The notes under the pieces: generated by a model | What the model was told of the DNA's origin: nothing | What the model saw: only the letters and a program-made list of their open reading frames with translations | The model's database searches: none | Assembly: GCA_000091205.1 (NCBI GenBank) | Contig: AP006497.2 | Reading direction: 5' to 3' (one strand) | Length of the DNA stretch: 64,000 nt | Source: Cyanidioschyzon merolae | Taxonomy: Eukaryota | Translations under genes and position numbers: made by a program | Shown: piece after piece, positions 15,345 through 59,470 of the stretch | How positions within the stretch are numbered: position 1 is the first letter of the stretch | Layout: each line of letters opens with the position of its first letter

Positions 15345-15700
15345 CAGAGCGAAAAGTTCTCTTCTAGCCTACCATCGAGCGAAGAAGAACAAATGACGAA
15401 GGAGACGAGGGAGAGTGGGACCTTGGCCAGAAAAAATGTGTATCTGACAGGACGGTGACGAGACGTAGTGTCACAGAGGGCACGAGTTCGAGGACTACTT
15501 GCATTCGTGAGTTCAACCAGAGGACACGAACGCAGGGACTCTGTGAACCAAGACTTGAACGCCGCCATGAATATCCGGAGACCTGCGGCGCTGAAGACAA
15601 GACCCGAAGCGCTGATGCCATTCAACTCTGTGGGGCACCCTCTCACACTCGAATATTGCACGGAGATGCTGAAGCCGATGGCGGGCGGCCGGTCGGAAAC
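15345..15700 (+). pseudogene. Copy A: a truncated 'X + RuvC-III tail' fragment of the TnpB/Fanzor-like family
   Basis: The plus strand reads VNQDLNAAMNIRRPAALKTRPEALMPFNSVGHPLTLEY at ~15543..15660. It is preceded by segment X (~15345..15540), which is shared at the nucleotide level with 19083..19280 and 36584..36780. The GGCGGCCGGTCGGAAACGG motif lies at ~15690. Upstream frameshifts are present. Confidence 0.55.
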
Positions 15701-17462
15701 GGCTTGGAGGCGTCTGTCTGGAGGTATATACGGATAACCTCGATGGTTATAGAGCTGCTCAGTTTCACTGATAGGTACGTTGACACGCACACCTCTGAAC
15801 ACGCCGCGGTTGCCCAGCGCCCCGTTGTATGCGAAGCACAGCATTCTGAGTTATCGGACCCAGCACGTCCTTTTCTGTTTCTGTCTATTTTTTCCTTGCA
15901 GCTATTCAACGAACACAATGTATTTAATGAATGGGAGGAACGTCACGAAAAGACTTGACACGCTCACCGCTAGCGAGCGAGGAATGGTTATATGTGTTCA
16001 AGCCAATCACTGCACCGTCCTGAGGTTGACGAACGGACCCTCTCATGGCTCGTATCCTGAACGCTGTCGTCCCAAAATCCAAGTTTCCAGACTCTTTCTA
16101 CAAGAATGTCTCCTGGTCACTCAATTCTCGTCACATATAGTCTATTAGGAAAACGATTAAAGAAGGCACCAGACGAGCAGTTTCCATTCCGTGCATACGA
16201 ACGGTGATGATGGGAAACGGATGCGAGGGAGAAGCGCGCCTCTATACAAGACGGTCGCGCGTCCAGCTCCACACAATCGATTTCGTACTGACACGCGAAT
16301 CCTCATTCCAGGACAGAAAGGTATTCGTCTCACTCGATAGGATTCCGTTCGCGAACAACGGCGGACCTGTGTACGGGTACTCAAACCGGGGCCGAACCGC
16401 TGTTTACAATGAAGAAACTAAAACGAGCATGACGACGGCATCAGTCCTAGTGGAGGAGCTGTCGTGTGGTCTCGTATTTATCGCAGATGGCTCGGGATCG
16501 TTCTCCACCTTATACTTCGTCGAAGCAGTCTTCGCGGATCCTCCTTCCCATATTCTTGCGTCGTGCTCTCAGACAAGGGCGCTTTCTATCACATATCTGG
16601 GTCAAGGGCATCGGCGGAATGTGTGGTGCTTCAAGCTTTATTCTGAAGAGCAGCTGCGCTGTAAATGCAGAACGCTTCGGTACTTGGGCAACGCAAAACT
16701 GGGCCTGTCGAGAACGGGTGCAGCATGTTCCCGCTGCAAACTCGACTCGTCGATGTTGTTATTGTGGGTTCTGCCCTGCACCCGAAACTCACGAGCGGCG
16801 TCGCAGCTAGGCCCTCATCTCTGGACCCATGCATCGTTGCTCTTGACACGTGCGGGAAACCTTGCAGATGCTGAGCATTTTGGGCTCGATCTCCAGAATG
16901 AGCTGAGAAAGCAGTCGGCGCTCAAATCCAATCTGTTCCGTTGCCGTATCGCCAGTCGCACGGCTCCCGGGACGCAACCCGTCTCTGCATCGCTTCCAGG
17001 CTCGCTTGACGCACTCTGGGCCAGCTACTGGGCTAATGCTCCAAACACCCGGTGCATGACCCGCAGACAAGATATTGCACAGCGAGCGTGGACGCGTCAT
17101 TCTGGCGGCCCGCAGGTGACCTTGGATCTGGAAGCGCCTTTCTCCATCTCACGATGGATCATGCCTGATGTAAATGAGAACATTTACGATGTTGGCGCCT
17201 GGGTTCACCATCGAAATCACAATCTCTAGGAATTCTCTGACGACATGCGCGCAGAGGTGTCCGCAAAACGGAAACAGCTGTTGGAATGGATCTGAGCGTG
17301 ATCTCATCCGTGCCCGCACAAGGAGATGCGATCCGCTTCTACCAAATCAAGGTTTGATACATGGCGGACAAGTGCCTTACTGATCTCAGCCCGAAAGACC
17401 GTTCCGAACGCGGTTTCCGTTCCTTGGTTCATGCGGCAAGCAAGGGTTCGACGTCGTATCGG

Positions 17463-19059: not shown

Positions 19060-19331
19060 TCGGGGGTTCTGGCGGGCCGTCATCACTGAGTTCTACGAAA
19101 ACGATAAGAATCCTCTTCTCGCCGACCATCGAACGAAGAAGCGCAAGTGACGACGAAGAAGAGGCGAGGTAGGCAAGAAAAGGTGTTTGCCCGACGGGAC
19201 GATGACGAGTGTGTCGTGGTACGGGGCCACGAGTTCGATGAATCCTTACATTGGAGTGTGTGTGTGTGTGTGCAGTCAACGGCAATGCACGAAAGGAGTT
19301 CGTGAACCGAGCCCTCAATATCATGCGCTGC
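19060..19331 (+). pseudogene. Copy B: segment X plus a 60-bp RuvC-III piece that abuts repeat R1 in inverted orientation (chimeric or nested)
   Basis: The plus strand reads VNGNARKEFVNRALNIMRCAV at ~19283..19331 and runs directly into R1. A (TG)9 microsatellite lies at 19256..19272. Segment X is homologous to 15349.. and 36584.. Confidence 0.5.
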
Positions 19332-20950
19332 GCTGTCAAGACTCCGCACTTTTTTATATCGTCAGGACTGATCTGGCACTTTTCCATCTCGAGCGTCTGA
19401 AGTGTACACCCCAGCTCGTGGTCTATGCAGGACGTCCGGAACTCGTCTATCGGGAATGTGACAAAACGCCTTGCGCACTCCTTGTAAGCGCGTGTCGGTG
19501 AGGCTGGAGTGCACCCTGTTTTCGACGCCCAGCGCCCTGCTCCCTATGCTGCTACGAGGCTTTGACGCTTGTCCTCCTTGAGGGTGCTCAGCGCATGAAA
19601 AAAGTTCCCAAATGCACGCCATTCCGCACAGTACAAGTTCATATGCGGACGATGGCATGGACATTGGCTTTTGAACGCTCTCTCCGCCGCTGCTTCCATT
19701 GCCGCTCTCTTAGCCCCGAGTGAACATGTGCCGGTCTCTCTTGTCCTTGCAGTTCCCGAGTCAGCAGTCGAGGGATGTCGGTGGCAGCGTTCAAGTTCCG
19801 ATTTCGCCACTTCCCGCCCGTGGTAACGCGTCCCGCGCGTAGGGCCAAGTTGCGGTCCGCACGTCGTTCCCCACGTTCATCTTCTGTGCACATACAGCTT
19901 CGGTGTGTCTTTCGCTGCGCTGACACCGGACTGTGATCAGACGTTCGCATATTCGTCTGCCGCATCTCTCACGCGACCGAGCGCCGCCCTGTGGCATGCG
20001 AAGGCTTGCTTCAGCGCTCGATGCATGTCCGGGACTGGCGTAGAAGGCGCTCGTCGAATCCATTCTTTGTCTGCATACCCGATGCCGTGACGAACGATGA
20101 CGGGCTGGTTCCGGGCGATTCCCTTTGCGAGTGCGCTGTATGGTGCAAAAGCAAGCATACGCAGTCCCGTTTGAGAAGGGATTCGTGGAATGCGATATTG
20201 GCCTTGGTGAGGCAGGCACCGGAATGATAACACTCATAGGAGAACCAGTCGAGTGATTTCGATCCGTCCACGCTGTTCTACAGCGAAGCGGCGATCCAGT
20301 CTGCACCAGAGGCGATCGCTGCGACGACTATAGTCAAGGACTTCATTCCATGCAACCAGAAGAGGCGAGTGCATCTGGGCGCGAATCCCCGTGTAACGTA
20401 CGATGCAGCTGTCGAATTCCCTGTCTCGCGGATGACCACAGGGACACAAGGATTTGTCTTTCGAAAGGATTCGATCATTTGATACGAGAAGCACGATGAG
20501 GCTTGGGCGTGAGCGTGTGAACACGTCGTCAAGGAGCGACGTCGGGCTCCGTGCCGCGCCAGTCCAGTGGCGAGCATTGCTGTGCCCACGGGTTGCCTTG
20601 AAACAGAAAGATCGAAAACATGAAGCATGCATGATTTGCGCATGCTATACACAAGGAACGCGATAGCGGTAGAGGCTTGTGCCTACAAATTGGTTCATAA
20701 AATCGGCTATTTTACAAACCTTTGTTTGGCGGCGTCGAGAAGCATCTCGATCCCGGTGACGTATCGAGTTACAGGGGCAACGCGTCGAAAGTGGCACGCA
20801 GTAACGCCGACCGGGAATCCGGAAACTGCGCATGAATTTCCAAGCCCTGATTGTTGCACTTTGAGTGTCTAGACCATATATCTAGGACAATGCCGGGAAA
20901 AAAAATCGAAAGGCAGGGCCAGCGCGTGCAGTGCAGTATCCCGTATTCAT
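19332..20950 (-). mobile_element. R1: a ~1.6 kb repeat carrying a decayed TnpB/Fanzor-like coding region; it is copy 1 of a direct-repeat pair
   Basis: It is about 97-98% identical to 39027..40645, with a constant offset of 19,695 bp. The minus strand encodes fragments in three frames, including WRAFGNFFHALSTLKEDKRQ and the zinc finger ...FRTSC..HELGC...CQISPDDIKKCG at its low-coordinate end. Multiple frameshifts leave no intact ORF. Confidence 0.7.
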
Positions 20951-22673
20951 CCAACGGTGGCACAGCGCTGCGGGAATCGGGCACCATTGAGGCGGGGCGT
21001 GTGTTGCGATGAATTCTATAATCAAAAGAACGTTCTGTTCTGAGCACGGGACCGAACGCTCGATGGATATCATCACCCTGGAAAGCGTCCATTATGCCTC
21101 GCCTTACGTTCAGGTACCAGCCGCCACTAGGCATACTTTTCCTCAGAGATACTAGTCGTCATATGTGTTCAACACTGTTCCGAATCTTCCGAAAATGCCG
21201 GGCAAATTGCGCTGGCTGTGGAGCGCGCTTCGAATGTAGTGCACCAGTGCCGAGAGCGCTTCGACGGCTCGTGCCATCGCGTCTCTGGTACGCCAGGCGA
21301 AGACGAGCCAACGTTGTTGCTGGTGTAAAACTTCTGAAAGGTGCCATGGATTTGGCATTCGCAGGCAGGAGTTGCACAGGCGACACCGACAGCGTACTAT
21401 CAAAAAAATAGGCGCATGGCATGTCGTAGCATAGGGAGCCTTCGTCTCATGAGTGTGTACTGGAAACACGAGTGGCTGCCGCACAGAAGCTGCGGATCGC
21501 GCCGAGAAGCAGCTGGGCATGCGCACAACCCGAGTAATGGGGCACACGCGAGCGTCTCGACGCGACTCCAGTGCTCCAGAATGCCTGGAAGCGTGTGCCG
21601 CGGCCTAGGCTGCCAGGCAAGCCTCGTTCGAGCGGCACCGTCCGGCGCGAGTCGAGTGCGACCTCCCCTCCCACGAGTCAGGCATCCGGGTGCCGGACGC
21701 AAATGATCCTCAGTCGGTATAGCGCGTGCGCATATTGTAGCGACGTGCTCCGATATGGCCGCAACACGTAGGCCACTGGCGCAACTTTTTCGCAGCCCGA
21801 CATACTCTAAACTGCCCAGAGGCTTCTCACTGCGCTTCATGCCGCAAAGCGTTTCCAGTCAGTACTTAGGGCGGTGTCGAGCGCCCTGCTCGACGCAGCG
21901 TTCTCGCGCGCCGCATCAAGTCGTTCTGCAATTCATCATCATTGTTCCGCCTCCGTGACTCGATTCAGTCGCATGCCCTCTAGACTTGCCATCCCGAGTC
22001 GCTGCCCGCGCATTGCGTCCACGAAAGCTCGTCTGTGTAGACAACAAGCGAATCGTTCCAGTCACAACGCTCGTCCCCGTGGACGCGATACAGGATACCC
22101 GCGTCGCCACACGCAGCGGTTACTCGAAGCGTCCCGCTCCTGCCGCTGATACGAGTGCTGCGGCCTCAGCGTCGATATGCCTGCGCAGCGCATGTTTCCG
22201 GCCTGCTTTTTTTTCATTGACAAAACGTTTACTTAGGCCAGCGTTCTCCGATTACGCGCATTTTTCTTTTCTTACTTTTTTCTGTGAGTGTTTTTTTCCC
22301 CGCCCTGCTGCGGAGGCGCGGCGCCCGCGCGATCGATGAACGCATCCCCGCGGATCGTTGCAAAAGCGCGACACGTCACAGCGCCGCATGCGTGCGTGCG
22401 TGCCGGCGGCGGCGGCGGCGGGAACAGCACTGTGGCATGCGTGCGTGCCGCGAACGCTCATTCAACAGTAGGCTCTCAGCGCAGCGTTCTGTTTTTGGGC
22501 GAATACAGGGAGCACCGGCAGTGTTCATCGAGAAGGAGTGTACTACGCGCCTGTGCGAGCGGTGACCGGGCGAAGGACCATTCGGTAGGTATCACTTGGT
22601 ACTCGTTCGAGAACGCCAGAGTTTTCTGCAGAAGCTTTTCGGATTTCGGTAAGAGGAGCCAGCGCGCCGAGGA

Positions 22674-36569: not shown

Positions 36570-36910
36570 GACAAAAAGAAACACGATAAGATTCCTCTTA
36601 TTGCCGAGTATCGGACGAAGAAACGCGAGTGACGAAGGCGAAGTGGAAGAAGCGTGTTGATAGGCGAGGAGAGCTGTTTGCCCGACGAGGCTGTGACGTG
36701 ACCTTGGTGGCACAGAGGGCACGAGTCCTTATGCACCCTTGCGTTGATGACTTGTACCAGAGACAATACACGCTGGGAGTTCATGAATCGAGACTTCAAC
36801 GCTGCGCCATTAAAAACAGACGATGTGCGGTGCTGAAGAGGCGACCCGCGTACCCGACGCGAGCCAACTTTGTGGGCCAGCCTCTCACACTCGATGTGTG
36901 CAACGATAAA
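36570..36910 (+). pseudogene. Copy C: a truncated 'X + RuvC-III tail' fragment, frameshifted
   Basis: The plus strand reads EFMNRDFNAAPLKTDDVRC, then shifts frame to IKNRRCAVLKRRPAYPTRANFVGQPLTLDVCNDKL. Segment X lies at 36584..36780. The copy sits in the promoter region of the minus-strand hydrolase gene, which starts at 36306. Confidence 0.55.
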
Positions 36911-37591
36911 CTGAACTCACTAGTCCTGAAGCTTTACGTATATCGGCGTTATACAGCAGTTCGCTACATGTCGGAAGCGTCGGATGCCACGTGGTTCCTA
37001 AATTCGCATGAAAGTTCACTACAGCAACGCCGTACCACACACCATGAGTGATGCTCGTCGTCTTTGCAAAGACGCTTCCGTGCATTGTCGCTGGTATAGG
37101 GGCAGTCAGCTTGTCAAATAGCGTCGTGCGGGTACCCTGAATCAACTGGAAACCAAGCATCCAATCGATTCAAGGTGTTTCTCAGTCACAGTTGGGCGTC
37201 AAGTTGTCCTGATCATGCAGCGACAGAGGCGGCAGCCGCTCAGCACCCCCTGAGTCGGAGTTCCACGTCTGCAATCCGCCATTGTGCTCGGCTGAAGAAG
37301 CGTATCGACAAACGTGCAACAGGCATGAGCCACAGATCGGCCGCTGAGCTACATGTATCCGGACGCTCGTTTCCGCCTGCAGAGCCATCACGTATGCGCA
37401 TGAGAAAGTTCGCACCCGATGCATACATCTCGAAGCAAACCGCATGCTGCCGGCTGTGGATAAAGTGCTCTATTCAACGGACAAGTCGAACGCGAACGCC
37501 CTCCAAGTGGCGGCACCACTGAATCGGACAATGTTTACAACCTGCCATGCCTTGCGGTATGCTGCTAACGCTCATTCCAGGCGCTCGAGGT

Positions 37592-38668
37592 CTAGTTCAA
37601 GGGTTTCGTCGCAAGCCACACCCGATGCCGCGGCGTATTGTTTTCGGTCTGCACGTCAGTGAATCCACTGATTGTCAGTAAACTGACCATATCGACGCGT
37701 TCATACTCAGAAAAATACGGTTCAGTGCTGCGGAATATGGCTGCTCCGACCGGGGGTATCGAACGGAACGCTTCGCTGTGCGGATCAGAATCCATCATCG
37801 CCAACATGCCTCCGGGGCGAAGCACTCGATACGCCTCTACCACGAGACGCTCGGTCGCTGCCATGGGCAGCTCATGTGTCACCAGGGAACATAACACGAG
37901 GTCCACCGAATCCGCTTTCTGAGGGAGGTTCTCGACCGCGGCGTGCTTAAAACGCACCTGAATCGATGACGGGTAGCTGCGCTCCTCTGCACGTAACTCG
38001 GCAACCGCAAGCATGAACGTCGATAAATCGATTCCTGTTATGTCGAGCGGGCGTTCCGGATACCGTGCTAGCCATGCATCGATGAAGCGCATCGTGCTGA
38101 GTCCAGTCGACGCACCCAGGTCGAGTGCTACCAGTGGACGTCCCATGGGCACGAGCAGCTGTTCCAGACGAGGCCAGACTCGGTCCAGGAAGGTGTCGCG
38201 TAGCAGGCGGTCACCTTGCGTGGGCGGTGCTTCCGGGAAAAGGCGTGCATGGACCGCCAGAGCCGACGACTCGACTTCCATGGCAGGAATCCAGCCAAGG
38301 TTCCCTTCCGGATACGTATGGAACGGTGCACGTACGTAGTAGTCTGGATATACGAGGTCGCGTTCGACAAGTCGCGCTCGTTTCTGTTCGAGGGTGTCCC
38401 ACTTGAGCCGCAGCTCACGAACGTTCTCTCGCCAGGGCACGCCGATCTCCTCCGCTCTCTTGACGACACCTGCACGGCCAATTCGCTTCAGTAACCAAGC
38501 AGTGGGCGGGAAAGCTAAAATCCCTTGTACTATCAGAGCCGGCAGTTTGCCCTCGGGGTTTCGCGTCACTGGAGTCGTCGCCGAAGCGTGAATCCATCGA
38601 CAAGCTCGGTATCGAGTGCACTTCTGAGACGGCAGTCTCACGCATGGAACAAAGTTTAACTGCGTCAT
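37592..38668 (-). CDS. Class I SAM-dependent methyltransferase (Methyltransf_11-like)
   Basis: Motif I is VALDLGASTGLSTMRF. Downstream blocks are DLVLCSLVTHELP and LRPGGMLAMMD. The likely start is MTQLNF at 38668. The longer ORF, 37592..39505, reads through in frame from a Fanzor/TnpB-like remnant upstream and is judged chimeric. Confidence 0.55.
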   Translation of the reverse strand: MTQLNFVPCVRLPSQKCTRYRACRWIHASATTPVTRNPEGKLPALIVQGILAFPPTAWLLKRIGRAGVVKRAEEIGVPWRENVRELRLKWDTLEQKRARLVERDLVYPDYYVRAPFHTYPEGNLGWIPAMEVESSALAVHARLFPEAPPTQGDRLLRDTFLDRVWPRLEQLLVPMGRPLVALDLGASTGLSTMRFIDAWLARYPERPLDITGIDLSTFMLAVAELRAEERSYPSSIQVRFKHAAVENLPQKADSVDLVLCSLVTHELPMAATERLVVEAYRVLRPGGMLAMMDSDPHSEAFRSIPPVGAAIFRSTEPYFSEYERVDMVSLLTISGFTDVQTENNTPRHRVWLATKPLN

Positions 38669-38744
38669 GAGGCTCGCTATCAAACGCCGTTCTAAAGTCG
38701 AACGACGTCGGACGTGTATCGTAGTGGCGGTGAACGTGCCTTCG

Positions 38745-39026
38745 ACCAGAGGTCTTCGACTGTCGTGCAGACGCCTTCCGGTCTTTTCGGACCGGCCACC
38801 TACTCCTGATTCCAACTTTTTCTCATATAATTCCACTTTGAGCGATTGTCCAACAAAGTTCTCTCTTGTCCACTCTGGAGGTCTTTTCTCCAGCACCGCA
38901 CATCTCCTGACATTGACAGCAGCGTTGAAGTCTCGGTTGACGAATTCCATACGTTTCTTGCCGCCGTTGGTTGTGCTCACCAGCGCATGTAGTGCTCGAA
39001 CTTTCGTCCTGCTTCCCATTTGCTCT
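38745..39026 (-). pseudogene. TnpB/Fanzor-like C-terminal segment (RuvC-III motif DFNAAVNV) plus a conserved 3' tail
   Basis: GGKKRMEFVNRDFNAAVNVRRCAVL matches the TnpB/Cas12 RuvC-III consensus (AD.NAA.NI) with the catalytic Asp present. It is preceded by a CxxC...CxxCG zinc finger and the FVTFPIDEFRTSC block (compare TnpB VxVdPxYTSqxCsxCG). A 3' motif CAGGAGTAGGTGGCCGGTCCGAAAAG at ~38745..38770 is shared with copies at ~55440 and ~15690. Confidence 0.65.
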
Positions 39027-40645
39027 TCTGTCAAGACTCCGCACTTTTTTATATCGTCAGGACTGATCTGGCAATTTTCCATCTCGAGCGTCTGAAGTGT
39101 ACACCCCAGCTCGTGGTCTATGCAGGACGTCCGGAACTCGTCTATCGGGAATGTGACAAAACGCCTTGCGCACTCCTTGTACGCGCGTGTCGGTGAGGCT
39201 GGAGTGCACCCTGTTTTCGACGCCCAGCGCCCTGCTCCGTATGCTGGTACGAGCCTTTGACGCTTGTCCTCCTTGAGGGTGCTCAGCGCATGAAAAAAGT
39301 TCCCAAATGCACGCCATTCCGCACAGTACAAGTTCATACGCGGACGATGGCATGGACCTTGGCTTTTGCACGCTCTCTCCGCCACTGCTTCCATTGCCGC
39401 TCTCTTAGCCCCGAGTGAACATGTGCCGGTCTCTCTTGTCCTTGCAGTTCCCGAGTCAGCAGTCGAGGGATGTCGATGGCAGCGTTCAAGTTCCGATTTC
39501 GCCACTTCCCGCCCTTGGTAACGCGTCCCGCGCGTAGGGCCAAGTTGCGGTCCGCACGTCGTTCCCCACGTTCATCTTCTGTGCACATACAGCTTCGGTG
39601 TGTCTTTCGCTGCGCTGACACCGGACTATGATCAGACGTTCGCATATTCGTCTGCCGCATCTCTCACGCGACCGAGCGCCGCCCTGTGGCATGCGAAGGC
39701 TTGCTTCAGCGCTCGATGCATGTCCGGGACTGGCGTAGAAGGCGCTCGTCGAATCCATTCTTTGTCTGCATACCGGATGCCGTGACGAACGATGACGGGC
39801 TGCTTCCGGGCGATTCCCTTTGCGAGTGCGCTGTATGGTGCAAAAGCAAGCATACGCTGTCCCGTTTGAGAAGGGATTCGTGGAATGCGATATTGGCCGT
39901 GGTGAAGCAGGCACCGGAACGATAACACTCATAGGAGAACCAGTCAAGTGATTTCGATCCGTCCACGCTGTTCTACAGCGAAGCGGCGATCCAGTCTGCA
40001 CCAGAGGCGATCGCTGCGACGACTATAGTCAGGGACTTCATTCCATGCAACCAGAAGAGGCGAGTGCATCTGGGCGCGAATCCCCGTGTAACGTACGATG
40101 CAGCTGTCGAATTCCCTGTCTCGCGGATGACCACAGGGACACAAGGATTTGTCTTTCGAAAGGATTCGATCATTTGATACGAGAAGCACGATGAGGCTTG
40201 GGCGTGAGCGTGTGAACACGTCGTCAAGGAGCGACGTCGGGCTCCGTGCCGCGCCAGTCCAGTGGCGAGCATTGCTGTGCCCACGGGTTGCCTTGAAACA
40301 GAAAGATCGAAAACATGAAGCATGCATGATTTGCGCATGCTGTACACAAGGAATGCGATAGCGGTAGAGGCTTGTGCCTACAAATTGGTTCATAAAATCG
40401 GCTATTTTACAAACCTTTGTTTGGCGGCGTCGAGAAGCATCTCGATCCCGGCGACGTATCGAGTTACAGGGGCAACGCGTCGAAAGTGGCACGCAGTAAC
40501 GCCGACCGGGAATCCGGAAACCGCGCATGAATTCCCAAGCCCTGATTGTTGCACTTTGAGTGTCTAGACCATATATCTAGGAAAATGCCGGGGAATAAAA
40601 TCGAAAGGCAGGGCCAGCGTGTGCAGTGCAGTATCCCATTCCAAT
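39027..40645 (-). mobile_element. R2: copy 2 of the 1.6 kb direct repeat; it is continuous with a RuvC-III-encoding tail at 38745..39026
   Basis: The ORFs at 39057..39371, 39486..40001 and 39973..40347 are near-identical to those at 19362..19664, 19791..20306 and 20278..20652. The minus strand across the boundary reads ...EFRTSCIDHELGCTLQTLEMENCQISPDDIKKCGVLTEEQMGSRTKVRALHALVSTTNGGKKRMEFVNRDFNAAVNVRRCAVLEKRPPEWTRENFVGQSL. Confidence 0.7.
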
Positions 40646-41945
40646 CTAACGCTCGGCTAGCATAAACCGCTGTTCACGAAACGGCATCCATGCAATAAGA
40701 GGAGTCAGCGTACGCTCCGCAAGTCGAAATTGGACTGGGTATTCGGCAGCCTCGCAGGCGCGTTCATCGCTCTGGGCGACGAGTTCCAGAACTGGAGAAG
40801 TCTCTCTGCTCCTTCGGTGCCTCCGCGTGCAACCGAGACTTGGCCAAACAAGTGACAGGTAGCAGGCGCCCGTCACGCAATCCCCAGCATCTTCGACCGT
40901 ATCATCCGTACCGGGAATTCGGATGCTCAACACGGCCAGGCGACGATGCGCGTCCGTTTCGGAGCAGGCGAAGCGGTGCGCTCCAACGCCGGCACCCGTG
41001 GCGCCTCGCATCTCTTCGGCGAAGCGACTCGAACGCGTCAACCCCAAGATATTTCTCTAAGACTTGGCAAAGCTATTGAATTGCCGTGACGCACACAACG
41101 AAGCGCTACCCCGATTGCACCCTGCTTTTATGGTACACGGTCGATGCACCGAGCCAGATTGCCATCGGTAACCGGAAATGAAATCGATGCGCTCATCCAG
41201 ACGTTTTTGCGTATCTGAACCCTGGACCCGTATTCCCCGTAACACTGCACGCTTGATCGATCCCGCAACGCTCAGAGTGCAACGCCCATGGTACACGTCA
41301 AGCAGAGACAACACGATTTTCATCGATCCTTGGAGGCATTCGTTCAAGGCAGTTGCGTCATTTTGCATGCCGAGCGCTCGCTTGGCCGAGATCCGCGCAC
41401 CTCTGTGCGCGGCGTCCATGCGCCGGTACCCGTGTCCGTGCGCGGCTGAATGGCGCAGCGATCGCCGTCGCGCCGCCGCCACGCATCGCTGTCCGGTGTC
41501 GCATCCGTGATCGCGGCATCGCATCGGATGCGTGCAGCGCATGCACCCCGCGCGCCCAGCACGGATCGCGCAACCAAAGCATCGACGTCACGCGCCCTGA
41601 GCGCAGCGCCCGCGGACGCTTGAGGGCGTCGCGTGCATTCACGACGCTCGCGGGATCGGAATCTACTTCCGTGCATTTCGCAGCTTTGAGTAAACTTCAA
41701 GACACAGAAGCGCAGCTTATTTCGATCTCAAGTTTCATCTAGCGTTCGCTTACGTGTCGCAAAAGTGGAGAAAGCAATATGCTGGTTCTGCCTGCGCTCT
41801 GCAGCGTACCAGGCACCGCGTCACTCTGATCCGCAGTTGTTGACCTGCGCGCCCTCATCGACACACAGACGTGGTATCCAGGACGAAGCGCGTCCGCTGG
41901 TCTCGTTGTGATCCGGCAAATGCGCCCACGCCCGTGGCGCAAACA

Positions 41946-48427: not shown

Positions 48428-49229
48428 AATTCTGCGCATAAGCGCTGCGGCGGGTCTGTGAATTCCGATACGAACAACCCCCTATACCTGTGTCAGCTTA
48501 AGAATGAACCATTGGAATGCTCGCCCTGTTCCTAGCGTGCGAATTTCTCCCGACCTTGTTTGTAGATGTACAGCCTCGCCGTTCGAAATGCGACAATGAG
48601 CGATGACGGATTCAAACGTAGTTGTAGGGTTCTCGATCGTCTTGTCAGTGTGGCTCGTTTCTCGCTTTGCCGCTAGAATTCGGTACGTTACCGGAATCTA
48701 GGTGATTCGCGATGCCATGGAACCAGGGCTCGTAAAATAATCGATATCGTTACGAAGTGCATATGTAGAATTTTTCACGCGTCCCTTTTCGGTACCTGCT
48801 ACATGTTAAAATCGCAAATTCTTCAAGTCCTCCATGTTTCTGTTTCGTGGCAATTCGTAGACGCAGCCATTCGCGTCGCTGGATCGAGGAAAAAAAACTG
48901 GACGCCGTCCACTGACGAATTCATCACAGGTTCATGGCTGGCGTTTACTGACTTTGTCACGTGAAAAATTCAAAGCAGCTCGAAGGACAACACTCTTGCT
49001 TGATTGTGGCTATCGAGAAAACGACATTCGACAGCAGCATGATACGTCAGCCAGGACACGCTTCTACTAGAGGCTCCCGTCTATTCTGTTACCACGGAAA
49101 AGGATTGTGGACTCGGGCTTGAGCCAGCGCAGTGATCGCTTCTAGGGAAGCGCCCGTCACCGCCTGGTCCGAACTGAGCATAGACGGATCGAAATTTCTC
49201 GACTTGATCTTGAGGATCGATTTTTTTCT

Positions 49230-49350
49230 GGGATTCGCTTCATCATGGACAAGTTCGCAGTGCACAAATCCTCTATCGAATGGGACGGCGTACGCTTGGA
49301 CATGCATCGGGCAGTGTACTCGCTGTGCGTATCGGCCAGAAGAAGGCCGG
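49230..49350 (+). repeat. Fragment F: a short R-like fragment in inverted orientation
   Basis: The plus-strand peptide QCTNPLSNGTAYAWTCIGQCTRCAYRPEEGRN resembles the R1/R2 minus-strand peptide HSTNPFSNGTAYACFCTIQRTRKGNRPEPARH. Confidence 0.35.
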
Positions 49351-52176
49351 AATTATAGGGTACGGTCTCGGGCATGGAAACGAGCCACGGAAACGACGGG
49401 TGCGCTCTCTGAACCTGTAAAGGGTATGAAGTGAACGCTGAATGAGGCGTTCATGGTCAACAGGACAGCTCTCGGAGGATACGGTACCGTAGACATATGG
49501 GAATACCCGACCGCAGTGAGGTCGCACCGGTGCAAAGCGCACATCGCGACTGTATGCGAAGAAAATGCGACCGGCAAGCGAAGCATATGAACTGCATCTA
49601 CCGCCTATGCACGAAATGCGTCGCTAGCAGCCCGGAGCAGCAATATCGGCATTTGACTGCAGCAATCGACATGCTTCGACTGCTGAAAATGGAACTGGAG
49701 GGAAACGGGAGCAATGCATTCTTGAATCCGGAGATGCTTGTAAGGCAAAAGAAGCAACCACAGAAAAATCCGCAAAATCCAGTTTTCATGACAATCAGAT
49801 GTAATCCGAACGTCCTTATGTACGCCAGAGTTTGGTACTTGGTTCCTGTCCATCTCAGCCTGACATGAACGCCCATAAAGCATCCATAGAGTCGACATGA
49901 GCCAGGAAAAGAGCACATAGCGCGAACGCGCTGGCCTCGGGATGCGTCCGCCCAGGAGACTGCACGCGCTGTGTGGGCGGCCCCAGTTCGAACGCTTTGG
50001 TTCCCGGCTTGAAGCAGGTCGTGCATACGAGTTGCTCCATCTTTGAGGATACCATTCAAGTCACCCGCGGCTGTGATTCTTTATGATACCGTGGATCGCG
50101 TCTTCGGAATACCAGACAGGTTGCGCTGGTCCCATGTCCACAGGAAATATGGCTAGCTGTAGCATCCCTAGCGGGACGGCCGCCAGCATTGGAGCTGCAC
50201 CCAACAAATAGATGTACACGACGTGCATTTAGCTCCTAGTGCCAGGCACGTGAACGCATCCGCCAAGTATTCGCTCAAGGTGCCTTGCAGGTGCACGCGA
50301 TTACGGTGGAAAATCCGCGTACCTAAAAGCAAGCAAATGCCCCCAGAATGCAGCGTCTCTCGGAGCGTCTCTCTGCCGTTCAGGGATGTACCGGTACGCT
50401 GTCGCTCATTTCCTTGAATTTGACGATTCCGATATCGAGGAGAGCGCTCCTGTATTAGACGCTCGCAGCCCTATCCGATTTCGGAGCGAAACGGAACAGG
50501 AAAAGTCGAAGTTCCATCGGTAGGCAGCCACTCATCAAGATCATCCAATTACCCGTGAACGTCGACCTGGTCTCTGCACCAAGCGTACCCATGGTATTGC
50601 ACGACGTGACGAGCCTTGCGATCTATGCGTCCAGGTGGGCGACTCCGGGAACCCGGAACCAGCGTCCTGCGAACACTTCGTAGACGCGACGCCTCGACGG
50701 TGCCCAGTACTGGCGCGTTTTCGGAGGTGCGCAACTGCACAGTTGCATTGCACTGACTCTGGCTTCGCGTCGCATACGCGTTGTACGATTACTGAGCAGC
50801 GACACTCTCTATGCACGCGCTGGTGTTGCTCCCGATGTACGCACAACGTCCAACTTGGAACGGAACCGTCGCCGCAACACACGCCTAGATCCTGGTTCAG
50901 GAGGAGTAACCAATGGTGCTGCTTCGAGTTTTAGGACGGCATGAAAGAGAGCTCCGGCGTATCTTGAATTCAAGATTATCGCCAAGATCAGATTGCCGAG
51001 TTGTACGCCATTGCCCCGAGCCCTGTTTGGGTCTCGCTCACAACGGCCAGCATGTGCGCAAATAGAGTTGTTGCGTTCCCGATATTCGCTTCCGATAAGC
51101 TACGCACGATCTGTTGTTTCACGTCGAGCGTGGGCTGCAAGCACTTGAGCCAATCCCCTGCATGTATTTCGCTTGCCAGCGGCTGCAGGTTGTACGCTGC
51201 TCCGCACTGAGCGGTCGCAGCCTGCACTTGAGCCAATCTCCTGACACCATTCGAGGGAAGCAGCCGCAGCCGCAGCCGCAGCCACAGGCTCTTTGCGTGC
51301 TCGCTCTCCATTGCATTTTCGTACGTACGCTAGACAGACACAGACTCGATCATTGCGGGAAATGGATTTCCGCATGCACTCTGAAGCGCCATAGGCATCA
51401 AAAACATGTTCGACAAAAGCGACGTACGACTGAGAACCTTGTACATGTTCGCTTTCGTGCGACGAGCGTGCACAACACCTCGAGTCGGCGAGCGTCACGA
51501 CGACAGAGACCAGTCGGCAGCGGGTCAGTTGGCGTCAGACACTGCACGTTTGGACGCGTTTCCGAGGAGTTCAATTCTCGATCGAAACTGACTCTGGTAG
51601 GTGCTTTCGAGTTGCCGGCAAATTCACCGCTTCCGGGTAGAGTAAAGCTCGAGAACGCCTTCAGCGCAGTGCCAGTTCTGCCACACGCCACCTTCCCGGC
51701 TCCAGTGAGGTCTAGTTACAAACCGACGCTCCCCGATGCTCGACAGTAGTCTTCGACTCGACCAAGAGGAAACACGGAGAGGCGTCTACGTCACGGGAAT
51801 CAAGCGGCGATCCGGGAAAATGCAGCTCGTCAGGGGCTTTGCCACGCCCTCATCGCGCGAAAACGTCGTATGCTCCAGACGCAAGCGTTGTAACCGCGAG
51901 TGCATGCTGTCTTCGGAAGCGCCGATTGCTCTCCGAACCAAAACACCATCATGAGCAAGGATTCGAGCCCTCGCACCGGTCTCACGATCGCACGCGCTCG
52001 AGTCGAAGCATCGCTCGCCGTCATCGATACAGTTTCTCAAGCCGCAGCCGACAAAACTTCCTGTCCATCACCCGCATGATCCGGCTGCATGCTCGTCACA
52101 GGTTCATTGTCTACTCGTGGAAGAGCGCGCCCCCCGATACAACCGGTACGCGAATGGACAATGCTTCAGAGAGCGC

Positions 52177-53625: not shown

Positions 53626-55047
53626 TTACGTTGTTTCTGATGAGCCGGTTGGTCCCTGCAGGAGAACATCTTCACCGAGGATGCGCAGACCTGGTACGCT
53701 CGGGGTGACTTCCGGTGCACTGCGACCCGGGCGCGTTTGCTGCTGGTCGAGAAACGCGTGCAGGGTGGAGAATCCAGCTCGTTCCTCTTGATACATTTGT
53801 TGCATTCGCTGTTGGAGCGCGTCTAGCTCCTGATCGATGATGCCGCTCTGCTGAACGGAGCTGTACGCGTCTGCAACTGTGGTTTGCGGGGTCTCCCGGC
53901 CGAACGAGTCGCTGGTGGTATTACTAACAGAGGCATTTTCCAATTGAGATGAATCGGGTTGTAAAAGCTCCAGCGGGTCCGTGTCGTGGATGTGCTGGCC
54001 AGAGATCGCACCCACCTGGCGCAGGTCAGGCACTGGCCGGTTCGAGAGATCTCCCTGATCGCTTAGATACGTCAGTGCTTGCGTCCATTCAGGACTGAGG
54101 GCTAAAAAGTCCAAACCAGCAGATGCTAGCTGGCTGTTCATTATCTCCACGGAAGAAAAGAGCCGGAGCATGAACCCTTGTAGGTTGTGGAGCTGTTCCT
54201 CCCGTTCAGATTCTCGCTGCTCACTTTCGACGAGTCGCTGTTCAAGGCGAGCATAAAGACGACGCAGTTCGCTAAGCTCTCGCAATAACAGGCTGTTGTC
54301 GCGGCGAAGACGAGCAGCCTCGTCCTCGAGCGAACCATACTTACCAATCTCGATTGTTCTGTTGCCCCGTCCGAAGATGCGACTCAACCATGGCGGTTTT
54401 CGCTGATTCCCTGAATCCGAAGTGTTGAAGGTTGCCAGATCCTCCTCGCCCAGCAGCTCAGATGCAGCCAACGGGACATTGATGTGCTGCTGAAGGTAGG
54501 CAGCGTTCGCGTCTAGCCGCGGTTTGGAGGCAACCCCTCCGGGCAGCATGCGCACACCCTGCACTGGCTTGAAGGCGCTGCCATGGTTCACCGAGCCCGA
54601 GGAGCCGCTCGTACCAGATGCTCCCAGTACCCTCTTCCGTCGCTCGGGCCGGTTCCGCTTGATCTGACTCAAAAGGTCCGGCCGGTCTCGTCGGAAGAAC
54701 TCGTGCTGGAACTCCCAGCGCTCGTGACTGATCTTGTGAAACCCGTACTGATTCAACTGTCTCACAAAAGACGACATGTTGCTGTGTTTGAAATAGGCAG
54801 GAAGCACTTTTTCGGTGAAGTCTCCGACCCGCCAGATAACGAAAGACTCCCCAGACTCTTCCCAACTGACAGTGTCCGCCGTCTCAGCATCCTGGACGAG
54901 ATCGTACACTTTTTGGATGAACACCGTGGTCTGAGGCTTATCCGTATCCATTTTTGAGTCAAAGCTTGGGTCCTGTGTGATGTCTGCAGCGCCCATGGCG
55001 AATACCAGCGCCGTGCACTCGGAAAAGCGAGCGCGAATACCAAGCAC
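53626..55047 (-). CDS. Heat shock transcription factor (HSF-type DNA-binding domain plus coiled-coil HR-A/B)
   Basis: The DBD reads FIQKVYDLVQD..TADTVSWEESGESFVIWRVGDFTEKVLPAYFKHSNMSSFVRQLNQYGFHKI..ERWEFQHEFFRRDRPDLL.QIKR. Heptad repeats follow at LRRDNSLLLRELSELRRLYARLEQRLVESEQ. Alternative starts are M18 and M33 (54951). Confidence 0.8.
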   Translation of the reverse strand: MLGIRARFSECTALVFAMGAADITQDPSFDSKMDTDKPQTTVFIQKVYDLVQDAETADTVSWEESGESFVIWRVGDFTEKVLPAYFKHSNMSSFVRQLNQYGFHKISHERWEFQHEFFRRDRPDLLSQIKRNRPERRKRVLGASGTSGSSGSVNHGSAFKPVQGVRMLPGGVASKPRLDANAAYLQQHINVPLAASELLGEEDLATFNTSDSGNQRKPPWLSRIFGRGNRTIEIGKYGSLEDEAARLRRDNSLLLRELSELRRLYARLEQRLVESEQRESEREEQLHNLQGFMLRLFSSVEIMNSQLASAGLDFLALSPEWTQALTYLSDQGDLSNRPVPDLRQVGAISGQHIHDTDPLELLQPDSSQLENASVSNTTSDSFGRETPQTTVADAYSSVQQSGIIDQELDALQQRMQQMYQEERAGFSTLHAFLDQQQTRPGRSAPEVTPSVPGLRILGEDVLLQGPTGSSETT

Positions 55048-55439
55048 GCCACAAGGAGCGTTCTCAACAAAAGCGAGAGCCGCCTACCTCGACAACTACT
55101 TTCAGATAGATAGACAGACAGCCAAACACAGACAAACCTCCAAGTCGAGTCTTTCCCCGTACCGATATCGTGGCACCCGAGCAGAAAGCGCACCCTCGGG
55201 TAACTTGTCGTCTTCGTGCAAGCGAAGCAACACACTGTTCGTTCGGGCTGTTGCCCGCTGCATCAGGGAGCGCGTCGATCGATGCGCGATCACCGGCCGC
55301 ACCGGCACGCCAGTCAATCATCGATGAAAAGCTGCGTAACCCGTGCCCGCTGTGGTGGTGGTGGTGGTACCGAGCGACGCACCGCCGCCTCCGCCGCCAC
55401 ACTCTGTAGAATACGTATCCACCGAGCCGATCGGCGGAC

Positions 55440-57400
55440 GCTTCGCCGGCTTTTCGGACCGGCAACCAACTACTCCTGCGTGCAACTTCAGGTCGTACTA
55501 TTCGACCTGGAGAGGTTGTCCCAGAAAGTGGGGTCGTGTCAGCTTCGGAGGTCTCGTCTCCTTCAGTGCACGTCTCCTAATATTGATTGCAGCGTTAAAG
55601 TTTCGGTTCACGAATTCCATACGTTTCTTGGCATTGGTTGGTATCACCGACGCAAGTAGACCTCGAACTCGCAACCTCCACGCCATCAGGTGCTCTGGCA
55701 GCGCTCCGTACTTTGCTATATCCTCAGGGCTCCGCTGGCACTTTTCCATCTCGGCACTCTGAAGTGTACACCTCAGCTCGTGGTGTAGATAGGAGTTTCG
55801 GTTCCCATCTATTGGCAACGTGACAAGACGGTGTGCGCACTCCTTGTACGTTCTTGTCGTTGGAGCGGGTGTACACACTTTTTTAGACGCCCGGCGCCCT
55901 GCGACGTATGATGTTACGAGCCTTTGGCTCCTGTCCTCATTGAGGGCGCTCAACTGGTTGAAAAAGTTGGCGAATGCACGCTTTTTTCCCACTGTACAAG
56001 CTCATACGCAAGCGATTCATCCGGGGCTTTGTATATTCTTTGCACAGCGCTTCCCAATGAGCAACGCGAACTTTTATGAACTCCCGAATGACCTGAAAGT
56101 CCGCTCCATGGCTCGTCACCTCGCTCATAGCTTCCAGATGCTCGTTCACTCCTTCATTTTACGTCTCAATTTTCTTCCTTGCATTCATTATTCCCGATTC
56201 TCGGTAATATCTAGCTTCTGAGAGCTTCAACAGAGGCATGTTTTCCTGGCGCAAGCCGCCGTCAATACCATCTTCCCCACGCTCGGATACCGCAATAGGT
56301 ATAATATTCATGTTCCCGGGGCCCGCGCCAACGACATAGTCCTTACCCTGCACCGCATGCGTCGCAGGATCCGCCTCCTTTTTTTTCATGCCTCGCCGAC
56401 GGCGAAGCATGAAGATGCAATGGGACGATCCACTTTCAAGCGCCGATCGTGTACACACACGGCTGCTCCATCGGCTTCGATCATCTCAGTAAATAACTTT
56501 TGTTTGCTCGTTTTCAGACGTTTGAAATCGAACATATTCACCCAATTACGTCTCCCGGTTTTCGCCCGTAAACTCCTTGCTGCTTAGATCGAACTCCGGA
56601 TAGATCTCCTTCATTTTGCTGTAAAGTACGTAGGGGCCAACTGTCACAAAATGTGACTTGATGTTGCATAGCGGAACGACATTGAAGCGCTTACCCATTC
56701 GGGCAGCGTTCCGTTTCTCTGACTCTTCATTTTTCCCCTCACACGCTGCTCCATCTCCGCCTTGCGTTCGAGTTCTCGATTCAGGAATACGAAATAGTGC
56801 AGGATGAGCGGATAAAAACTTTTTTTCATCTCTGATACCTTTTCTGCTGGATTTGACAAGCCCCAAGACTACACAGTGCTCGTGAACAGCCATACGAATG
56901 ACAGAAGCTTCATTCTTGCCCCTGCGTGATGCCTTCTTGTCGACGAATTCGATCCCCTGTCCATTCTGGCGATCGTTCGTGATGCCACTGATGATGGCCC
57001 GTATCCCCTGGCGGGAGAGGCCCGGGCACAGTGTAAAAATAGCCCGTATGATGAAACGTTCGAGGTTCACGATCATATGGTTCTTCCGGTGCTTGAGGAA
57101 CTTGATTGCCCCGTAGGTGTAAATATCACCATCATCCCTGCATCGAGTACCGTCGAAGCGGAATTCGGCGTAATTCTCGTGGAGGGCGTGCACTCGCTCA
57201 TTTTTCGTCGACGTTTCCCCTGTGCCAACCATCAGGTGGCGAATAAACGTCTTGCTGAAAAATCCCCCCGGGACCTCGACCATTTTGATGCCCATCACGT
57301 CCCGAAACATCTTCTTCATCAAATACATAAGCCCTGACGGAGCCTTCATAATACTCATGGAGTACGACTCGACACGGTTTCTGAGTGCATCTCACAACTT
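55440..57400 (-). mobile_element. Copy E: a diverged, most complete (~1.95 kb) member of the TnpB/Fanzor-like element family, with lower GC in its 5' two-thirds
   Basis: Four consecutive minus-strand ORF segments are 56546..57358 (270 aa), 56159..56458, 55937..56149 and 55498..55992. Together they give ~620 aa when frameshifts or short gaps are allowed. The C-terminal segment aligns at ~50% identity with copy D: RAFANFFNQLSALNEDRSQRLV ... YKECAHRLVTLPIDGNRNSY ... CQRSPEDIAKYG ... KKRMEFVNRNFNAAINIRRRALKETRPPKLTRPHFLGQPLQVE. A candidate RuvC-I-like block is KDYVVGAGPGNMNIIPIAVSERGEDGIDGG at ~56250..56330. The 3' flank 55440..55497 carries the conserved CAGGAGTAGTTGGTTGCCGGTCCGAAAAG motif. Confidence 0.55.
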
Positions 57401-57974
57401 TCCCTTTTAGGGATCCTTGATATGCCGAAGAAGACGGGCTTTCACAACCATCTCGTCATAGTGCCGTCTCTCTTGCAGCCTCTGACGTCGGACTTCCCCC
57501 TTTTTGCTTTTCGTCCTCTCCTGTTCTTCTGTACTTGACACTGTTTCTTCTTGCAGCCGGCGACATGATGCCTCCATAATCCTCCATTTCCATTTCCATG
57601 ACTTGCACTTTTCATTTTTTTCAAAAAGAACACGCTTTGAAAGCCTCTGCTATAACTCACGAAAAATCACTGGAATACACTTACTTGAGGGTTGGAACAC
57701 AGTTGAGTTCAAAAACTCGACGTTGCTATGACTTCAACGTAAATCCATCCGGTAAGTTAGAGCAACACGCTGATGATCAGGATCGTGTTCCCCTTGAACG
57801 GCGGCGTACGCATGGTGTATCATACCTTCCAGATTTAGAGATGCGCCTATCGACAGCACTATGCGGAGCAAAGAACAAAGACTTACCACTAAATGGCGAC
57901 GATACATCGATGTCTTTCGCTCTCTACGATAAACGTGAAAAGGGGAAAATGTTTCTGACCTGTCGAAAGCGTAC

Positions 57975-58510: not shown

Positions 58511-58959
58511 GAAAAAATCTCCCAACTCAGCTCTGCATCATGCCGCCGCTGGAGCGCGCGCTCGATCCGCCACCACGCGATCGTACCGATGGCAGAAATG
58601 TCAGGCCTGGAACGGTGCTGCTGCTGCTGCTGCGTGATGCATTGGGCGCTGGAACTGCAAGCCGCTCACTTGCTACTGCCGCGCCATCTGGCATTTGGTC
58701 AGCTTACCATCACATCATCTCATACATCCGTAACTGTTTCACGCGCTTCTTGTCTACCAGTTTCGAAGAGCAGTCGTGCCCGTGATTCGCTCATTTCATC
58801 CTGGACGCATCCGTGTGAATCGTGCAGAGTCGACTCCTGCAAGTATGGGGTGCTCACGTCGAGGGCGCGGAGGTGCAGCGAGCGCGCAGTCGCATGTCCA
58901 GCGCCATGGGTTGCCGCCGAGCGACGTGACGTATCGTTCAGTGGCAATCAACATCATTG

Positions 58960-59470
58960 AACAAGTTGGCGACTGCACGCCTCTTGCCTCCATGTAACTG
59001 TTGCCGTCGGTGTCGCTAGCGCGATATTATGTACTCCTGCCAGATAACGTTCGCATGAGCGACGTTGGCGCTCACGCACTCTGGGAATGAAGTGCGTAAC
59101 GCTCGCTACACTGCTCCGTGCTGTGGTCAGCGCTTCGGAATGGGCCCCCAAACCGCCATTCCACTTATTGGCATGCCCGTTGGCGTCCATCACGCTGACT
59201 CCCCGATCGTACCATTTCGTGGAAAACTCGAACGGATTCATGCGCTTCCTGTTCAGCCATTTGACTTGTTTGTCTTGATCTAGAGGGACGTCGATGGCCG
59301 CAAAACCCTTCGACGGGGGTTGCGTGCGCTTTTCCTCGCCCATACGCGTCGCTTCATCGCCGTTCGCATGAACGGCACGGAAACAACACATCATGTGATT
59401 TGTTGCATAGTTTTTCGTTGAGAACGTATGTATTCGGATGGTGTGATGAGAAAGTAGCCCTTCAAACACC
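58960..59470 (-). CDS. Hypothetical small protein (171-aa ORF); no confident family assignment
   Basis: This is an uninterrupted ORF sitting between the 650 bp repeat copy and COQ4. The KW/Y-rich segment PFEFSTKWYDRGVSVMDANGHANKWNGG is not recognised. Confidence 0.25.

Follow-up and report, generated by a model that had tools for sequence, protein, structure and literature searches.

A motif shared by Fanzor1-family remnants on Cyanidioschyzon merolae chromosome 15: a probable coding tail, with a candidate ωRNA block beyond the stop codon

Results

Fanzor1-family remnants and neighbouring host genes

The stretch of DNA analysed here (the window, 64,000 nucleotides) lies on chromosome 15 of Cyanidioschyzon merolae 10D, an alga whose genome is usually described as transposon-poor; of six reading frames compared with its proteins, five are exact matches. 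Searches by tblastn and blastn placed at least eight fragments of the Fanzor1 family in these 64 kb, alongside host genes for a methyltransferase and a heat-shock transcription factor (HSF) (Table 1). Copy D keeps RuvC-II (IDEFRTS) and RuvC-III (NRDFNAA) and lacks the RuvC-I region. Copy E is a dead pseudogene with stops and frameshifts that has lost each of the three RuvC catalytic residues (now GAGPG, IDGNR and NRNFN). Copies D, E and A are presumably all non-functional themselves. Since the last ~260 nt of copy C are missing, it has neither the tail motif nor the right-end block described below.

Table 1. Coordinates of the genes, element copies and right-end features in the window
Feature	Position	Strand	Basis or remark
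Copy A, short C-terminal Fanzor1 fragment (...NQDLNAAMNIRR...MAGGRSETAWRRL)	15468..15725	+	tblastn; motif 15688..15699 in frame
Copy C	19307..20956	-	blastn, 97.9% identical to D 39028..40651
Methyltransferase CDS	37592..38668	-	358 aa from ATG 38668; Pfam Methyltransf_11/25
Right-end block of D, 69 nt from the former stop	38675..38743	-	conservation drop, model R1
D hairpin 2 and basal stem, CACGTCCGACGTCGTTCGA-CTT-TAGAACGGCGTTTGATAGCG	38675..38716	-
D hairpin 1, GGCACGTTCACCGCC	38726..38740	-	followed by linker ACTACGATA
D former stop, now GAA	38741..38743	-	stop codon at this position in 35/56 related copies
Copy D, Fanzor1 remnant	38744..39418	-	tblastn, residues 460-682 of a reconstructed 682-residue query
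D C-terminal coding tail, SGVGGRSEKTGRRLHDSRRPLV	38744..38809	-	pattern matches, in frame with the family tail; motif core 38785..38808
HSF gene	53626..54996	-	Pfam HSF_DNA-bind; exact match to BAM81544.1, 456 aa; co-oriented with and downstream of copy E
Copy E, near full-length Fanzor1 pseudogene	55426..57451	-	tblastn; blastn to D 38767..39341
Degraded Fanzor1-like fragment	766..2546	+
Degraded Fanzor1-like fragment	36738..36925	+
Degraded Fanzor1-like fragment	48818..49780	+
Degraded Fanzor1-like fragment	58767..59256	-

Copy C (19333..20956(-)) and the segment 39028..40651(-) form a 1.6-kb duplication of which only the 3' ~390 nt are Fanzor-like. The remainder of the duplicated segment (~39419..40651) is not similar to the Fanzor protein; it may be a rearranged element or a separate repeat, with TE-N2_CMe as a possible relative.

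Identity of the protein family

The adjoining open reading frames had been described in the first-pass annotation as TnpB-like, a description that held and can be narrowed: judged by profile comparison, the family is Fanzor1, the eukaryotic TnpB-like RuvC nucleases. A protein database search with the D tail returned 155 unannotated proteins, the closest family members being 67-75% identical to it (listed range 54-91%), and a metagenome scan confirmed at least 432 relatives among the 600 pattern matches listed, from which comes the set of related loci used here (n=80). The longest near-intact frame in these loci has 778 codons with one internal stop, and the family consensus carries the RuvC motifs in order: VVGADPGNTNI (I), VDEFRTS (II) and NRDFNAAINI (III). 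Neither the Pfam scan of the window's reading frames, for their Fanzor parts, nor phmmer and hmmsearch comparisons of the close family alone with PDB sequences gave a match. Since these close-family searches returned nothing, the link to Fanzor1 was found only through a profile of distant relatives. The family profile (A3; 1267 relatives, many of 580-705 aa) aligned in hhalign with a profile of 42 full-length relatives (A5) at a probability of 100% (E=1e-85), and A5 in turn matches the solved Fanzor1 structures 9cf0 (Parasitella, 1.4e-16), 8gkh (Spizellomyces, 5.6e-10) and 9cer (Guillardia, 3.6e-5). It is because of these two steps that the family is assigned to Fanzor1. Against the Pfam entry PF07282 (Cas12f1-like_TNB / OrfB_Zn_ribbon) the full-length family protein scored E=0.18, below the gathering score, and 3 of 10 distant relatives scored E=3e-5 to 2e-3, all likewise below it. 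An AlphaFold2 model on a shallow alignment of 18 sequences had a pLDDT of 34.

Directly before RuvC-I the family protein has a tandem repeat of ~25 aa (...KHEEKKEAGPATQEVEDNDLVVD...), with the number of units differing between element copies from ~2 to 6 (3580..3880 of locus L045; also L013, L028 and L076). The 5' sides of the related loci share a core, ATCGCGCTCGGTGAGCGCACC...GTTGAAGGGAAACGCGATC..., above which at least three different recurring, subfamily-specific blocks are found, and the block upstream of copy E (~57800..57960(-) of the window) is of the "TTTTCACGTTTATCGTAGA..." class. These differing upstream blocks suggest mosaic subfamilies.

A shared motif at the 3' ends of the reading frames

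The first-pass annotation had noted a short motif common to copies D, E and A, and this observation was borne out. The string GCCGGTCSGAAA has exactly three zero-mismatch matches in the window against 0.78 expected, at 15688..15699(+), 38785..38796(-) and 55452..55463(-), and in the same pattern search CAGGAGTAGKTGG matches at 38796..38808(-) and 55466..55478(-) against 0.06 expected. The motif is thus real and more than chance. Its sites, 38785..38808(-) in D, 55452..55478(-) in E and 15688..15699(+) in A, all stand at the ends of TnpB-like reading frames, and in a multiple alignment the similarity of the three copies extends ~15 nt beyond the motif as first described, up to ...GGCGTC(T/C)G. 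Several positions needed correction. The motif of D had been set ~40 nt away, at 38745..38770, a stretch that encodes the last codons, HDSRRPLV; in D and E it is carried by the minus strand; and it lies ~117 nt, not 80 bp, upstream of the methyltransferase ATG. In E the motif does lie upstream of the HSF gene as described, at a distance of ~456 nt from the annotated ATG (54996) in place of ~400 bp.

The motif is very probably the conserved C-terminal coding tail of the Fanzor1 protein of a multi-copy C. merolae element of the CMe-1A type, and its presence in D, E and A would be explained by their descent, in decayed form, from the same gene's 3' end. The in-frame translation of about 56 related copies is ...VVGGRSKKTGRRLHVSWRRFV*, where the stop follows the motif by 14 codons, and the motif itself follows the pattern (S)GV(V)GG/C-RSE-K/T...RR/KR. 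Among 56 unique DNA copies, 35 have TAG, TAA or TGA at the family stop codon and 43 keep the frame open over the last 25 codons. At the protein level, 15 of the 17 aligned homologues have the same C-terminal end, ...RRxV*, with the protein running through the motif (...LYEKKLEAVVGGRSKKTGRRLHVSWRRFV*). The corresponding tails of E and A translate as AGVVGCRSEKPAKRP and MAGGRSETAWRRL; E, like some related copies, has an in-frame insertion of 3 nt here. Over the motif codons (-20..-10) of 43 copies, column identity is.89,.88 and.77 at first, second and third codon positions, so that the third positions vary most. The conservation of the motif is therefore an ordinary coding pattern, with no excess at third positions.

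The motif had instead been described as a non-coding element, a candidate ωRNA scaffold or transposon right end, situated just past the point where protein homology ends. What spoke for this was its presence in three copies and, in E, a stop codon ahead of it. That stop exists (55498..55500), but it is a nonsense mutation in a pseudogene, at the codon for Leu in the conserved VELYEKK. The tblastn alignments, moreover, pass through the motif, and the in-frame copies, the conserved stop further downstream and the coding signature of the conservation all stand against a non-coding reading. We regard it as vanishingly improbable and consider the motif as a non-coding element ruled out by its in-frame conservation and by the position of the family stop. 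The coding-tail alternative, which had been entered as a possible refutation with the in-frame reading SGVGGRSEK, is the correct one.

Many of the copies have a different end, ...RPPE* (proteins P0044, P0045, P0048, P0053, P0059, P0060, P0063, P0067 and others). In these, a stop has taken the place of the codon that follows (W or L in RPPEWTR / RPPELTR). That they share this nonsense mutation suggests amplification of a lineage that was already a pseudogene.

A hairpin block beyond the stop codon

The conserved non-coding sequence at the element's terminus lies after the stop, not at the motif, and in the window it is present in D only. Identity among the copies is.75-.88 over the first 40 nt past the stop and ~.7 up to 60 nt, then falls, at ~60-66 nt, to.38. 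The consensus reads TAG GGCG(N5-9)CGCC ACTACTGTA CACCGYYGGCGTCGTTCGA CTT TCGAACGGCGTT(T)GATGGTG, after which the copies diverge; structurally, it is a short GC hairpin, the ACTACTGTA linker and a long terminal hairpin of up to 19 bp (in L043). In D the 3' end of the block, ...GATAGCG, is a diverged ...GATGGTG. Some subfamilies carry a different hairpin sequence at the same place, namely ...AACGTTTTTC-TTTT-GAAAGGCGTT... in one form and CCGGCGAGCACGCGC/GCGCGTGCTCGCCGG in L024, with divergent sequences also in L006, L033 and L037. R1, a covariance model based on 25 copies, has 61 instances in the related loci and a single significant match in the window, 38671..38743(-), at E=1.4e-16. The same scan of the window did not detect the block in E or A, which leaves D as the only one of the window's Fanzor copies to carry it, and for this reason the earlier comparison of D, E and A missed it.

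Structural support for the block is moderate and points to a structure of the sense strand, as RNA or as single-stranded DNA. In the main subfamily taken alone, covariation does not exceed that of shuffled alignments. Between subfamilies, 32 cells changed on both sides of a stem against 15.9±3.2 in shuffles, and on 4 of 5 measures none of 500 shuffles reached the observed value, in an alignment that was fitted to the model and of sequences that are related. One pair of hairpin 1 switches from G-C to C-G (13:10 copies). The sense strand is more stable than the antisense in 45 of 52 copies, by a mean of 4.9 kcal/mol, and in the stems G·U combinations outnumber A·C ones (160 against 24 cells), an excess that comes mostly from three inherited positions. 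With broad alignments of the 3' ends, RNAalifold recovers only the short hairpin (a 4-5-bp stem), because the long hairpin is heterogeneous and misaligned. Searched against Rfam, the window had no match reaching the gathering score, and the surroundings of D had none at E<=1.

Could the coding motif also serve as RNA? One alternative has it coding and, at the same time, providing the 5' portion of an ωRNA scaffold whose sequence reaches back into the end of the reading frame, as in GtFz1 or the TnpB of ISDra2. Such overlap of an ωRNA with a reading frame is documented (PMC10432273), and the motif precedes the end of the element by 110-134 nt, a distance in keeping with TnpB-type scaffolds. A hairpin CCGGTC-N6-GACNGG could pair in 82% of cells, where slid controls give 24-55%, with a weak covariation signal (.129 against.101; 9 of 500 shuffles score as high). 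Its third codon positions are nevertheless the least conserved, with no sign of an extra constraint; one of its stem pairs is missing from 20 of 42 copies; the hairpin is not among the structures called by RNAalifold; and the 69-nt block after the stop is by itself already about the size of the SpuFz1 scaffold. We consider such a double role distinctly unlikely. The covariance and folding analysis of the 3' ends proposed at the outset thus brought out the two-hairpin block beyond the stop, with moderate covariation between subfamilies, and left the motif hairpin weakly supported.

A second alternative concerns the block itself, whose hairpins might be a single-stranded DNA signal for transposition by an HUH/Rep-type or other transposase, and not, or not only, an ωRNA. 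The strand asymmetry would fit a top-strand signal as well, the hairpin stands at the very 3' end, and its fold is kept between subfamilies that differ in sequence. CMe-1A is also without TIRs, defined TSDs or an assigned class (PMC3627910), and terminal hairpins are general in Rep transposons, with Fanzor1 itself riding on Helitrons in Chlamydomonas (PMC10288648). The terminus, however, is ...GGTG with no CTRR, no Rep, Hel or Y1 gene was seen within the element, and the basal stem uses several G·U pairs that would be weak as G·T in DNA. The two roles are moreover compatible, since TnpB/Fanzor ωRNAs overlap transposon ends. On this evidence we find a DNA-level signal rather unlikely. As a classification of the whole element, a Helitron or HUH-type transposon was tried and rejected: the hairpin is present, but the end is not CTRR and no Rep/Hel reading frame was seen inside.

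Of the motif and the post-stop block, it is the block that we put forward as the better candidate for an ωRNA or right end, its 69 nt being a match in size and position to the anatomy of SpuFz1.

Junction with the methyltransferase gene and the context of gene starts

The D element ends 6 nt before the methyltransferase ATG (AGCCTC, 38669..38674). Because the stop codon of D is mutated to GAA, a single open reading frame, 37592..39505(-), joins the Fanzor remnant to the methyltransferase by way of the right-end block. The corresponding GenBank/RefSeq entry, BAM81538.1 / XP_005537574.1 (600 aa, "similar to bacterial putative methyl transferase", 37592..39394(-) of the window), is a chimera of three parts: 219 residues from the tail of a Fanzor1 pseudogene, 23 codons read through the former stop and the transposon's right end, and the methyltransferase of 358 aa. 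The predicted fusion includes the stretch ...RRPLVEGTFTATT.... The 358-aa product from ATG 38668 is also on record from metagenomes. Environmental relatives (P0331, P0333, P0337 and P0338) share this insertion and its open junction, ...RRPLVEGTFTATTIHVRRRSTLERRLIASLMTQL...; no methyltransferase allele free of the element was found, all of the relatives searched carrying the insertion. Since the element ends so close to the ATG, we infer that the 5' UTR of the methyltransferase must come from within D.

That these elements sit at the 5' ends of host genes, as the first-pass annotation proposed, is correct for D, at 6 nt from the methyltransferase ATG, and for E, upstream of HSF. A further reading is that the 3' end of the element gives the gene that follows its promoter or 5' UTR, and persists beside gene starts for that reason. 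The junction at D and the open fused frame shared by the environmental relatives are consistent with it. So is a survey of gene starts, which took the right ends from R1 matches in L001-L081 and the nearest downstream reading frame of at least 150 aa: among non-redundant related loci this frame is co-oriented with the element in 28 of 41 (13 opposite; binomial p=0.03), a modest bias, and from the end of the element to the first in-frame ATG the median is ~105 nt, compared with 341 nt at random positions, although start calls based on reading frames are crude and biased towards short distances. Against it, the end of E lies ~440 nt from the HSF ATG, and E is without the right-end block. For D, the donation of a 5' UTR or promoter is structurally plausible from the arrangement of the junction; as a general explanation for the position of the elements, we hold host use to be possible but short of likely.

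Discussion

The motif that started this analysis is not a new finding in itself: it is the tail of a Fanzor1 family already catalogued in C. merolae. Its interest lies in what it leads to. The right-end block offers a concrete, testable ωRNA candidate for a Fanzor1 of a thermo-acidophilic red alga. The reference gene model BAM81538.1 can be flagged as a chimera of transposon and host sequence. The apparent placement of the elements immediately before host genes, in so compact a genome, also bears on how transposons are tolerated there and on the possible donation of 5' UTRs.

By analogy with known systems, the block of an intact element would be transcribed as the scaffold of a compact ωRNA, and the guide would be the 14-20 nt of flanking sequence after ...GGTG, as in SpuFz1. 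The equivalent guide of D would be AGCCUCAUGACGCAG..., across the start codon of the methyltransferase. Taken as a whole, the picture would be that intact CMe-1A has one of the most compact Fanzor1 ωRNAs (~70 nt from the stop, with a guide from the host flank), that the elements lie preferentially, and co-oriented, no more than ~100 nt upstream of host starts where their right ends supply 5' UTR or promoter, and that in D this arrangement led to the fusion frame of Fanzor remnant and methyltransferase shared across environmental strains. In this full form the proposal is speculative and, we think, somewhat improbable.

The C. merolae Fanzor1 element CMe-1A was described by Bao & Jurka (2013, Mob DNA 4:12; PMC3627910) as a repeat of ~150 copies, ~80% identical to their consensus and ~3 kb long, without TIRs, with TSDs not determined and no class assigned. 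The family studied here agrees with it in species, Fanzor1 class, multiple copies, a length of ~3 kb and the lack of TIRs, none having been found between the 5' and 3' ends of the element on inspection by eye, and the window copies D, E and A and the other fragments fit the description. From species, protein class, length and copy number, we infer that the window elements are CMe-1A. A 3'-terminal hairpin block, an ωRNA and positions relative to host genes are not described in that paper.

Helitrons and IS200/IS605 elements resemble the C. merolae family in their one-strand terminal or subterminal hairpins, their lack of TIRs and their orientation-specific placement. They differ from it in that here no CTRR terminus and, within the element, no Rep, Hel or Y1 gene was seen, and the stem is rich in G·U. 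With GtFz1 and the TnpB of ISDra2 the likeness is that a coding tail can double as ωRNA scaffold, which is the only route by which the motif itself could take part in one; the ωRNA of GtFz1 overlaps 17 codons of its reading frame (PMC10432273). The motif here differs in having no excess conservation at synonymous sites and weak support for pairing.

The premise that TnpB/Fanzor systems encode the ωRNA at the 3' or right end, from which the first-pass annotation had argued, is well founded in both SpuFz1 and GtFz1 (PMC10432273), and it is SpuFz1 that offers the nearest parallel in layout. The ωRNA of SpuFz1, from Spizellomyces punctatus, combines a conserved 75-nt scaffold from the element's 3' end with a guide of 14-15 nt taken from the flank (Saito et al. 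2023, PMC10432273), the scaffold lying within a 30-nt inverted repeat of a TIR element (PMC10432273). No similarity in sequence between it and the C. merolae block was found, and no TIR was found here. What the two have in common is their anatomy: a non-coding block at the 3' end, ~75 nt in SpuFz1 and 69 nt in C. merolae, and then a variable flank.
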